DNA of 64,000 bases from Thermoanaerobaculia bacterium (GCA_035996875.1 DASYJD010000023.1:14293-78292), one strand, 5' to 3'; shown: positions 14,863 through 17,800, counted from the first letter of the stretch. Notes: a model not told the origin generated them from the letters alone. A program made the numbers and translations.

Positions 14863-17800
14863 TCATCCCAGCTCCCGCACGAACACCCCCGCCCCGTTGC
14901 GCATCCCCGCGGCCATCTCCTTGAGGCGGCCATGATGCGTGAAGAGAATGACCTGCGTCTTTTTCGACAGCTCGGCCAGGACTTTGAGGGTCGCCGCGGT
15001 GCGCTCGTCGTCGAAGTTGATGAGGATGTCGTCGACGATGAAGGGGAGGGGCTCGGCGTGCGCGAGGTAGCGCTCCAGGGTGGCGAGGCGCAGGGCCAGG
15101 TAGAGCTGATCGCGGGTGCCGTCGCTCAGGGCCTCGACGGGGACTCGGCGGCCGTCGGCCCGCAGGCCGACGAGAATCGGCTGCTCGCGGTCGTCGAAGT
15201 CGGTGCGAAGGCCGGAATATCTGCCGATCGTCAGGTCGGCGAAGAGCTGGCCGGCGCGGGCGAGGAGCGGGTCCTGGTTCTCGGCCCGGTAGCGTTCGAT
15301 CTCGCGCTGGAGGAGGACGGAGGCCAGCCGTGCCCGGGTGTACTGCTCGACGTGCCCCCGCAGGCGGGCGAGGATCTCCTGCACCCGCTCGGCGGCTCGG
15401 GCCGCGCCGTCGCCGCCGTCCCTTCGCCGCAGCTCGCCTTCCTCGCTGCCGATCTTCTGCCGCAGATCGCCCTTGCGCCGCTCCAGCTCCTCGATCCGCC
15501 CTTCGGTCTCTTCGAGCCGCCCCGGCAGGGCGAGAGCGTCGATCTCCCCGGCCTCCCGCTCCAGCTCGTCGAGCGTGGCCCCCTCGCCCGCCGCGAGGAG
15601 CTGATCCTGGACGTTGGAAATCTCCTCGTCGAGCCGCAGCGCGTCCAGAGAACGGCGTTCCGCCTCGTCCAGACCGCTGTCGTCCTCGGCGCGGGCCTCG
15701 CGCCGCAGCTCGACGAGGCGGGCCTCGCGAGCGTGGGCGGTCTCTTCCGATTGCCGGATCTCCTCGTTCAGATCGCGGGCCCGGCGGTCCATCTCGGCGA
15801 GCCGAGTCGCCTGCCGGCGGGCTTCGGTGAGCAGGGCCGCCAGTTGGAGAACGGCCGTCTCTACCGGGCGGTCCACGAGATCGGGGGCGACCCGGGAGGC
15901 GAGATCGCGCACGGCGGCTTGGACGCCGGCCGTGTCGCGGTCCAGCCCGGCGATGCGACGGTCGAGATCGGCGGCGGCCTTGAGGCGGCCGAACAGCTCG
16001 CGCAGCCGTTCGAGGGTCTGATTGGCTTCGCCGGGTAGGGCCTCCTTCGGTAGCCCAAGATCGCGGACGGCCTCGGCCCATACCGCGCGCCAGGTTTCCA
16101 AGGCGGTAACGGCGGCCTCGCGTTCCTCCCGGGCCTCCGCAAGGCGCTCCTCCAGCTCCCGCAGACCGGCCGTGAGAGCCTCGCGGTTGCGTTCCACGGC
16201 TTCGAGATCGCGGACTCTGACATCGCAGCGGATGAGAATCCGCTCAAGGGTCTCACCCTCTCCTAAACCATACGGGCCCGCCCCCCATGTAGAGACGCCC
16301 CGCGGGGCACCCCGTGGGGCGTCTCCGGCGGAGAAATCGCCGGTGCCGTCGTCGAGACTTTCTGGGATGGCCGAACGTTTCCCGGTCCGATGTTCGGACG
16401 TGGCGGCACGTTCCGCACCCGCATCGGCTTTCAGAATGTCCGGGTCATTGGGGCCGCGATGGCTTCGAGGAGACGCCCCACGGGGTTCCCCGCGGGGCGT
16501 CTCGACAGGTTTGGCTGGGACGGTTGTCGCCGTCGCGATGGGATTTGCCGAGGTGACGGTGTGGAGCTCGCGGAGGAGAGCGCCCCGGTGGCGGGTGGCT
16601 TGGGATTCGAGAACGTGGAGCGCCTCACGGAGCGTCCGGAGGGTCTCCGCCCGTTCGAGGAGGCGCTCGTGGCGGCCGGTCCAGCCGGGGTGCATTTCGC
16701 GCGGCGGGAGCGGCTCGATGCGACAGGGGCTCCAGAGAGAACGCCAGTCTTTTTCGAGGCGGTCCCGCTCCGCCATGGCCGTGATTTCGGCTCGATCCAG
16801 ATCCGCGAGAATCCTTTGCAGGGAATCCCTGCGGGCGGCCTGGCGGGCGTTTTCGTGCACCCTCGCCGCCTCGCGACGGAGGCGGTCGGCCAGCTCGTCG
16901 GCGGCCTGGACGGTGGGCTCGTAGGCGTCGGCGGCGGTGACGGAAAACTTCCGGCGGAGGGCGATCCAAGCGTGATCGCGGCGGTCGCGGGCGGCAGCGA
17001 GATCGTCTTCCGAGGGGACGGAGCCCTCGCGGCGAATGGCGTCCAGCTCGCGCTCGGCCTCGGCGAGATCGGCCTGTGCCTTGCGCCGGTCGTCCAGGCG
17101 GGCGCGGTCCTGCTCGGCGAGGGCGGCGAAGGCGGAGTCGAAGCGCTGGATGGCGGCGACGGGCGGCACGGGCAGGGCCTCCAGCTCGTCGAGAGTGCCC
17201 GGCCAGCCCAGCCGGTCCAGCTCGCGGCGGGCGCGCTCCTCCTCGGTCCGCACACGCAGGGCAGCCTGGGCGATCTCGCCGTCGAGATCCCCAGCCCTGC
17301 GAGCTGCATCCACGGCGGCGCGAAGGGCCGAGGAGTCCCGGCGCGCCGGCAGGGCGGCGAGGGCATCGCGGGTGGCAAGATGCCGGCGCTCGGCCTCGGC
17401 GAGGCCACGCTGAGCCTGCTCCGCTTCGCGGACGAGGCCGTCGCGGCGCGGTCCCAGCTCCTGGATGCGGGGCCAGCGGGCGAGGGCGGGACGGAGGGTC
17501 TCGGCCTCGTCGAGAGTGATCTCCGGCCAGGTGTCCTCCAGCAGGCCCTGCGCCGCCGTGCGGGCCTCGCTTCGCTCGGCAAGCCGCTTCGAGCGGTCGC
17601 CGACGTCCTTTTTGTAGCGGCCCAGCTCCTGCTGCACGTGCTCGATGGCCTCCGCGTGCTCGTGGATCGCCGGCGCCGGCAGCACCGTGCCTCGTTCCAC
17701 GAGCAGGCGCTCACGCTCGGCCATGGCTCGCGCCTGGGCTTCCCGGGCGGCCCGCAGGTCGGCCGCCAGCTCGCGGCGTTCGGCGCCGAAGCCGGCAGGC

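Follow-up and report, generated by a model that had tools for sequence, protein, structure and literature searches.

A 285-nt segment in the gene for a YhaN/SbcC/Rad50-like ABC ATPase of a Thermoanaerobaculia bacterium (GCA_035996875.1, DASYJD010000023.1:14293-78292) is an insertion. The two palindromes within it are very probably the hairpins of a single non-autonomous element of the kind built from repetitive extragenic palindromes (REPs) and known, when these form inverted doublets, as a REPIN, which has inserted in-frame. The whole stretch of 64,000 nt that was analysed is referred to here as the window, and positions are counted from its first letter (Table 1). An earlier interpretation, hereafter called the sequence-only reading, had noted two inverted palindromes 144 nt apart within this gene, and both were located there. 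Close relatives of the gene lack the segment, and the palindromes belong to a family with REP/REPIN anatomy that is dispersed over other loci and preserves hairpin pairing on one strand only.

The two palindromes, GAGACGCCCCGCGGGGCACCCCGTGGGGCGTCTC (palindrome 1) and GAGACGCCCCACGGGGTTCCCCGCGGGGCGTCTC (palindrome 2), are each 34 nt long, with 16-nt arms and a 2-nt loop, and the two copies are reverse complements of each other but for one loop base. They had been described as perfect, which proved not to be the case: the arms are 94% complementary, with a single non-Watson-Crick position, so that each stem consists of 15 Watson-Crick pairs and one G·T pair (A·C on the opposite strand) of 16. 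The inverted repeat extends past the 34-mers, forming 50-nt arms that are 86% complementary. The 16-nt arm occurs four times in the window, compared with a mean of 0.55 in shuffled sequence, and 0 of 100 shuffles reached four. Folded as DNA, both palindromes gave energies of -17 to -19 kcal/mol (z -4.2 to -6.4). Within the 1245-aa open reading frame (ORF) they are translated as ETPRGEPRGAS and DAPRGAPRGVS. A CRISPR array or tandem repeat was rejected, as there are only two copies and these are inverted, and a terminator inside the gene was rejected for lack of a T-run.

Evidence for insertion was obtained by comparison with orthologs. A database entry identical to the 1245-aa window protein, P0001, is recorded on two contigs. 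The 120 homologs listed for it are mostly 1146-1201 aa long, and its close relatives P0002, P0003 and P0004 have 1150-1157 aa, with identities to the window protein of 91% and 80%. In place of the roughly 95 extra residues of the window protein, the orthologs of 91% and 80% identity have a variable loop of just 8-10 residues that contains Gly and Pro, and only a short loop is present at this site in all aligned orthologs, including outgroups of 41-60% identity. The peptides encoded by the palindromes were found in P0001 alone and in none of the other 119 homologs listed. Insertion limits were derived by codon-level comparison with L034 and L035, the DNA stretches that carry the 91% and the 80% ortholog, respectively. 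The sequence-only reading had placed a possible insertion at about 16290..16505; this part is indeed absent from orthologs, but the real unit is larger and extends past it at both ends. Other family members show similarity from 16265 (in L028 and L096) to 16551 (in L002), in agreement with these independently derived limits. GC content hardly differs among codon positions in the insert (0.72/0.70/0.64), unlike in the rest of the gene (0.82/0.47/0.86), where it is strongly periodic. The insert is therefore not of coding origin. An intein or intron was also considered and rejected, since no matching features were seen and the segment is translated in frame.

The palindromes recur elsewhere. When 185,579 species, each represented by one genome, were scanned for the exact pattern, 33 stretches were returned, all in seven metagenome-assembled genomes (MAGs) of Thermoanaerobaculia/Acidobacteriota, at unrelated loci and with 1-10 exact-match stretches per MAG. 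A scan of metagenomes added 74 further stretches with the hairpin, for 107 other loci in total, most of them showing the same inverted doublet. A scan of viral contigs and a plasmid BLAST search gave no family match, and a family hidden Markov model (HMM) found no copy in the 23-kb neighbourhood of the 80% ortholog (L035), or in L034. Homologs of the host protein that carry a name are likewise from Thermoanaerobaculia, which very probably places the window in that class. With relaxed matching, 171 palindromes were recovered from the family loci. Nearly all are flanked by TGTA on exactly one side, which sets their polarity, and 129 of 130 oriented copies have the resulting head, GTAG (TGTA plus the first G of the palindrome, positions -2 to +1); on the head strand the loop reads AA. 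Neighbouring copies pair up as 43 head-out inverted doublets, nine head-in pairs and one direct pair, and 63 copies are unpaired. In the 43 head-out doublets the spacer lengths fall into classes between 78 and 184 nt, apart from a single spacer of 328 nt, and the internal length from palindrome to palindrome is 146 to 251 nt. Doublets share the ends CC(A/C)A(A/C)TGTA-REP...REP-TACA(G/T)TGG, with longer arms in subfamilies. Most copies are intergenic and lie beside unrelated genes.

Among 2080 stem pairs read on the head strand, the mismatches comprised 83 G·T and only one A·C, figures that count copies rather than independent events. Because the scan pattern is symmetric, this asymmetry was not imposed by the scan. 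It suggests that the single-stranded hairpin of one strand is under selection, and in both window REPs the G·T wobble likewise falls on the head strand.

Several further observations were made on the family. All REPs begin with GAGACG and end with CGTCTC (16292-16297, 16320-16325, 16470-16475 and 16498-16503 in the window), bases that are unchanged in 130 of 130 family copies and that form the recognition sequence of Esp3I/BsmBI-type IIS enzymes. At one pair of orthologous loci, L028 (4040-4277) has a full doublet and L096 has the right half only, with about 220 nt missing, probably through deletion; a doublet that loses one half can thus give rise to a singlet. Filled and empty sites were sought by all-against-all megablast of the loci, which returned only this pair and gave no clean junction. 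At L019 (about 4500-5900), a tandem repeat lies between two REP heads, and one of its frames reads (QSLQSKPIEH)n.

Read on the gene strand, the window element consists of a 48-nt arm, REP-a, a 144-nt spacer, REP-b and a 25-nt arm. REP-a has a decayed head, with GTCG in place of GTAG (TGTCG) and a 3-nt insertion relative to the family consensus CCAGCCAATGTAG, and REP-b retains the head TGTA-G (16288-16292). Each hairpin folded better, and scored higher with nhmmer, on its head strand: REP-a gave -19.1 kcal/mol and 44.2 bits on the minus strand, compared with -17.2 kcal/mol and 31.3 bits on the plus strand, and REP-b gave -19.4 kcal/mol and 48.3 bits on the plus strand, compared with -17.2 kcal/mol and 30.0 bits on the minus strand. 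The gene-5' arm matches the left flank of the L002 doublet with 81% identity over 83 nt, and other members match it as far as 16529-16535. The gene-3' arm is 88-90% identical over 66-67 nt to the ends of L028 and L096 (TACATTGGGGGGCGAACCGGTGTGGTTT). As a whole, the window doublet is about 68% identical to the doublets of L110 and L101.

Table 1 Features of the inserted element and its host locus, in window coordinates.
Feature	Position	Strand	Basis
Whole inserted element, 285 nt = 95 codons, residues 684-778	16267..16551	-	Codon-level comparison with L034 and L035
Outer arm, gene-5' side, 48 nt, holds decayed REP-a head	16504..16551	-	Family similarity
REP-a (palindrome 2), 34-nt hairpin, head strand = gene (mRNA) strand	16470..16503	-	Folds, nhmmer
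Spacer, 144 nt, non-helical non-periodic peptide	16326..16469	-	Spacer classes of 43 doublets
REP-b (palindrome 1), 34-nt hairpin, head strand = plus strand	16292..16325	+	Folds, nhmmer
Outer arm, gene-3' side, 25 nt, TACATGGGGGGCGGGCCCGTATGG on gene strand	16267..16291	-	L028/L096 identity
Host gene, 1245-aa YhaN/SbcC/Rad50-like ABC ATPase	14863..18600	-	Pfam, PDB search, homolog list
SbcD-like metallophosphoesterase, 425 aa, upstream partner	18597..19874	-	Pfam Metallophos E 4e-11

The REPs of Pseudomonas, Stenotrophomonas and E. coli reportedly move as REPINs through REP-associated tyrosine transposases (RAYTs) (Bertels & Rainey 2011; Nunvar et al. 2010, 2013). REPs are defined by a conserved 5' GT(A/G)G followed by a palindrome and occur mostly as close inverted doublets, termed REPINs; they are nearly all intergenic and are associated with RAYT transposases (PMC3686654; PMC3337134). 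The present family has the 5' GT(A/G)G head, a GC-rich imperfect hairpin and a mainly inverted-doublet arrangement. The earlier suggestion of a MITE-like or REP-like element, MITE standing for miniature inverted-repeat transposable element, was supported by both checks proposed with it, comparison with orthologs and the search for further copies, and was sharpened to an element with the REP sequence definition (GTAG head plus palindrome) in the REPIN arrangement. That a Y1/RAYT-type transposase mobilises the element by recognising its hairpin in single-stranded DNA appears somewhat favoured, and no more than that because no such gene was found in the family loci or the window. Open reading frames between REPs 400-2500 nt apart were inspected, and none was a transposase candidate.

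A number of observations weigh against the REPIN assignment. No RAYT or other transposase was found in the 0.88 Mb of family loci plus the window, which were searched by a six-frame scan for HUH/NPV motifs and by tblastn with E. coli RayT, the latter returning nothing below E = 1 (best E = 1.0). Typical REPINs have a shorter palindrome, shorter spacers and shorter arms than the 34 nt, 78-184 nt and 25-48 nt found here, and copy number is low, at 1-10 exact-match stretches per MAG compared with hundreds for classical REPINs. The family HMM found no copy in the 64 kb of the window besides the two REPs, so that activity in the window organism itself is putative. The strand asymmetry, too, is a tally over copies. 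Finally, variability of the loop at the site leaves the insertion limits uncertain to within a few nucleotides. No direct repeat (target-site duplication) was seen at the window junctions or at family ends, and owing to this uncertainty in the boundaries its absence is not firm.

The explanation that we favour runs as follows. A low-copy family restricted to Thermoanaerobaculia (Acidobacteriota), whose element is an inverted doublet with outer arms, very probably placed one copy in this gene after the split from the 91%-identical relative. The target was the DNA for the short variable loop between two long helices of the Rad50/SbcC-like YhaN ATPase. The insert survived because its length is three times 95 nt, the frame of the gene is stop-free and the site tolerates extra residues; it is now translated as a probably disordered loop, and the gene stays under purifying selection.

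Structure predictions are informative about the target site. In the AlphaFold model of the insertion-free ortholog P0002 (mean pLDDT 82), the site is a 10-residue loop (680-689, pLDDT 61) between helices 633-679 and 690-753, and it is the least confident block of the central region. In a model of a window fragment (residues 600-860), about 100 residues including the insert were non-helical with pLDDT 43-54, and the flanking helices were above 90. The insert is thus probably a Pro/Gly/Arg-rich disordered loop of 95 residues. On the gene strand, the only stop-free frame through the insert is that of the gene. With L035 as outgroup, lineage-specific changes numbered 19 amino-acid and 106 synonymous in the window gene, and 40 and 101 in its insertion-free sister; by these counts the host gene is still under purifying selection, with no sign of relaxed constraint. 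A search of a protein database with the 95-aa insert gave no match and was uninformative, as the host protein was also missed.

At the RNA level, the insert folded at -167 kcal/mol (z = -6.3), with REP-a paired with REP-b. No promoter or terminator was found in a scan of 15900-16900, and Rfam returned only sub-threshold chance matches, to mir-612 (23.6 bits, gathering score 100) and ALIL. The sequence-only reading had also raised the alternative of a programmed hairpin acting on translation or recombination; nothing was found in favour of this beyond the strong folding of RNA and DNA. The mRNA structure may affect translation or stability, but nothing supports this, and a structure of this stability would at most slow translation. 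We infer that the gene tolerates the insert as a passenger and that this passenger is neutral or mildly harmful, not functional.

Three other explanations were weighed against a REPIN-type insertion. The element could be a classical MITE, derived by deletion from an insertion sequence (IS) and moved in trans by a DDE transposase acting at terminal inverted repeats of about 50 nt, of which the palindromes would merely be part. The 50-nt, 86% complementary arms that run past the hairpins are as expected of such an element, as are the variable internal length (146 to 251 nt), the low copy number and the failure to find a RAYT in the 0.88 Mb of loci and the window. DDE transposases, however, need no recognition of a single-stranded hairpin, and it is to such recognition that the invariant GTAG and the 83:1 ratio of G·T to A·C point. 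In addition, neither the window site nor the family members show a target-site duplication, no parent IS was found in plasmids, viral contigs or family loci, and head-in pairs and singlets occur, as in arrays of REPs and bacterial interspersed mosaic elements (BIMEs). On balance, a classical MITE was judged unlikely.

A selected feature of the host gene, in which the hairpin pair would, for instance, make ribosomes pause in a programmed way, provide a site for RNase III or for mRNA stability, or act as a signal for recombination or cruciform formation, is suggested by the very stable RNA structure, in which the REPs pair over more than 34 bp, and by the strong purifying selection on the gene. 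SbcCD-type complexes process DNA hairpins, and the UvrD-like gene described below keeps its REPs intact while the spacer diverges, both of which were counted in favour of this explanation. The gene, however, works without the insert, since the 91% and 80% orthologs lack it and its peptides are missing from all other homologs listed. One head has already decayed (GTAG to GTCG, with the 3-nt insertion), most family copies are intergenic next to unrelated genes, and no promoter-like or terminator-like signal or Rfam family was detected; such a role for the hairpins is very improbable. Even less credence was given to a segment that is ancestral and was deleted in relatives, or to an assembly artefact joining contigs at a repeat. 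Loop length at the site does vary among orthologs, and repeats can yield chimeric metagenome assemblies. Against ancestry stand the short loop in all aligned orthologs, the 41-60%-identical outgroups included, and the absence of the gene's codon periodicity from the insert. An assembly chimera is unlikely because the identical protein is recorded on two contigs and both flanks belong to the same gene, collinear and in frame. The REPIN-type insertion remained the preferred explanation.

Other family copies also lie within open reading frames. A test that required an open frame spanning the element and coding-type GC periodicity on both sides flagged 12 of 115 repeat groups besides the window copy, which collapse to about four genes. 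The best supported recurrence is in L098 (1440-1666; orthologs L102 5125-5351 and L092 1817-2037), where a doublet lies in-frame between the two ArsA_ATPase halves (A1-A2 linker) of an ArsA-like open frame of 804 codons, with Pfam domains on both sides of the doublet. Second in support are L110 (2155-2339), L101 (1025-1209) and L022 (4559-4731), where an in-frame doublet lies just upstream of a UvrD-helicase domain in an ORF of about 1100 aa. In this UvrD-like gene, from three related organisms, the REPs are conserved and the flanking coding DNA is well conserved, and the spacers of L022 and L110 are barely alignable; the pattern suggests selection or conversion acting on the hairpins, or repeated insertion at one site. 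A doublet was also seen inside a long open frame in L021 (1543-1691), L047 (495-643), L095 (8399-8547), L051 (3799-3947) and L090 (3809-3957), which come from several metagenome organisms and may represent one or several genes, with an ACR_tran match upstream and ABC_tran far downstream. This ACR_tran frame and L030 are less certain as in-frame cases.

All of the well-supported in-frame cases are linkers, a placement that fits survivorship of insertions at permissive sites, and a single REP is stop-free in five of six frames. A stronger proposal would be an ORF-compatible family resembling the Rickettsia palindromic elements (RPEs), inserted repeatedly in the linkers of large ATPases and helicases (YhaN, ArsA, UvrD-like), with the hairpins selected while the spacer drifts; this was considered improbable. 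Were it true, intragenic REPINs would stay transposase substrates or act as mRNA structures, and the family would be a regular source of disordered linkers. That the element landed in a hairpin-processing SbcC-like gene other than by accident is a possibility.

The host gene has an AAA_27 head (Pfam E 1e-72), a long helical middle and a Rad50-like C-terminal ATPase lobe, the last identified by a PDB sequence search with ortholog P0002. The metallophosphoesterase gene overlaps the start of the host gene by 4 nt, and the same order of the two genes is seen in L035 and L036. The best-conserved motif in the helical middle of YhaN-like proteins, W..LW.PC.I.PLPPREM..W (window 16730-16795, residues 619-640), lies about 45 residues upstream of the insertion site; W619, W623, P630, P633, E635, M636 and W640 are invariant, and the motif may be the apex or hook equivalent of the Rad50-like family. 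On the other side of the gene, a selA gene for selenocysteine synthase (13423-14853, plus strand) lies between yhaN and a zinc alcohol-dehydrogenase gene (contig L036). In L034 (91%) and L035 (80%) the dehydrogenase gene directly follows yhaN, a local difference in synteny from the window.

The event is of a known kind, in a bacterial group where it was previously undescribed, and it reveals no new mechanism. REPs are extragenic by name, and nearly all that is established about REPINs comes, to our knowledge, from Proteobacteria. A family of GTAG-hairpin doublets is now described in Acidobacteriota, and the window provides a dated, clean case of a copy fixed inside the essential-looking fold of a Rad50/SbcC-like ATPase. 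Selfish palindromes can thus add disordered loops to proteins outside Rickettsia. The family is small and tractable, with about ten copies per genome, for testing strand-specific conservation of hairpins. For annotation, the odd Pro/Arg/Gly-rich insert is explained and should not be read as a domain.

Among known systems, RPEs resemble the present element in function. They are AT-rich elements of reduced genomes. According to the summary in PMC10969869, RPEs (Ogata et al. 2000) are about 100-300 bp long, occur in-frame in unrelated genes, and are translated at fold-compatible positions, and nearly half of their copies are intragenic. In-frame palindromic insertions are well known for RPEs and occasional for other MITEs (PMC10969869). 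The window element is likewise in-frame and translated, as 285 nt or 95 codons with no stop, a resemblance in function only. Unlike RPEs, it has about 68% GC and comes from an unrelated lineage, and membership of the RPEs was ruled out by the taxonomy of the 33 genome matches, all of which are from Thermoanaerobaculia/Acidobacteriota rather than Rickettsiales. ERIC and pneumococcal BOX elements are small non-autonomous repeats that sometimes occur in ORFs as in-frame fusions (PMC10969869). They differ from the present family in sequence and host and are not defined by a GTAG-headed hairpin doublet.

The BIMEs of E. coli are extragenic arrays of REPs, and the present family resembles them as a mosaic of hairpin units in alternating orientation with conserved linker motifs between. 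The likeness in sequence is to REPs and REPINs. Some Stenotrophomonas REPs start with TGTAGAG (PMC3686654), and the present family likewise has GTAG right before a GC-rich imperfect palindrome. Its host phylum, Acidobacteriota, sets it apart from the published REPIN studies, as does the intragenic, translated position of the window copy and at least two others. It shares with REPINs an inverted doublet that can fold as one long hairpin, a distribution that seems mostly extragenic, restriction to one lineage and hairpin pairing that is kept on one strand.

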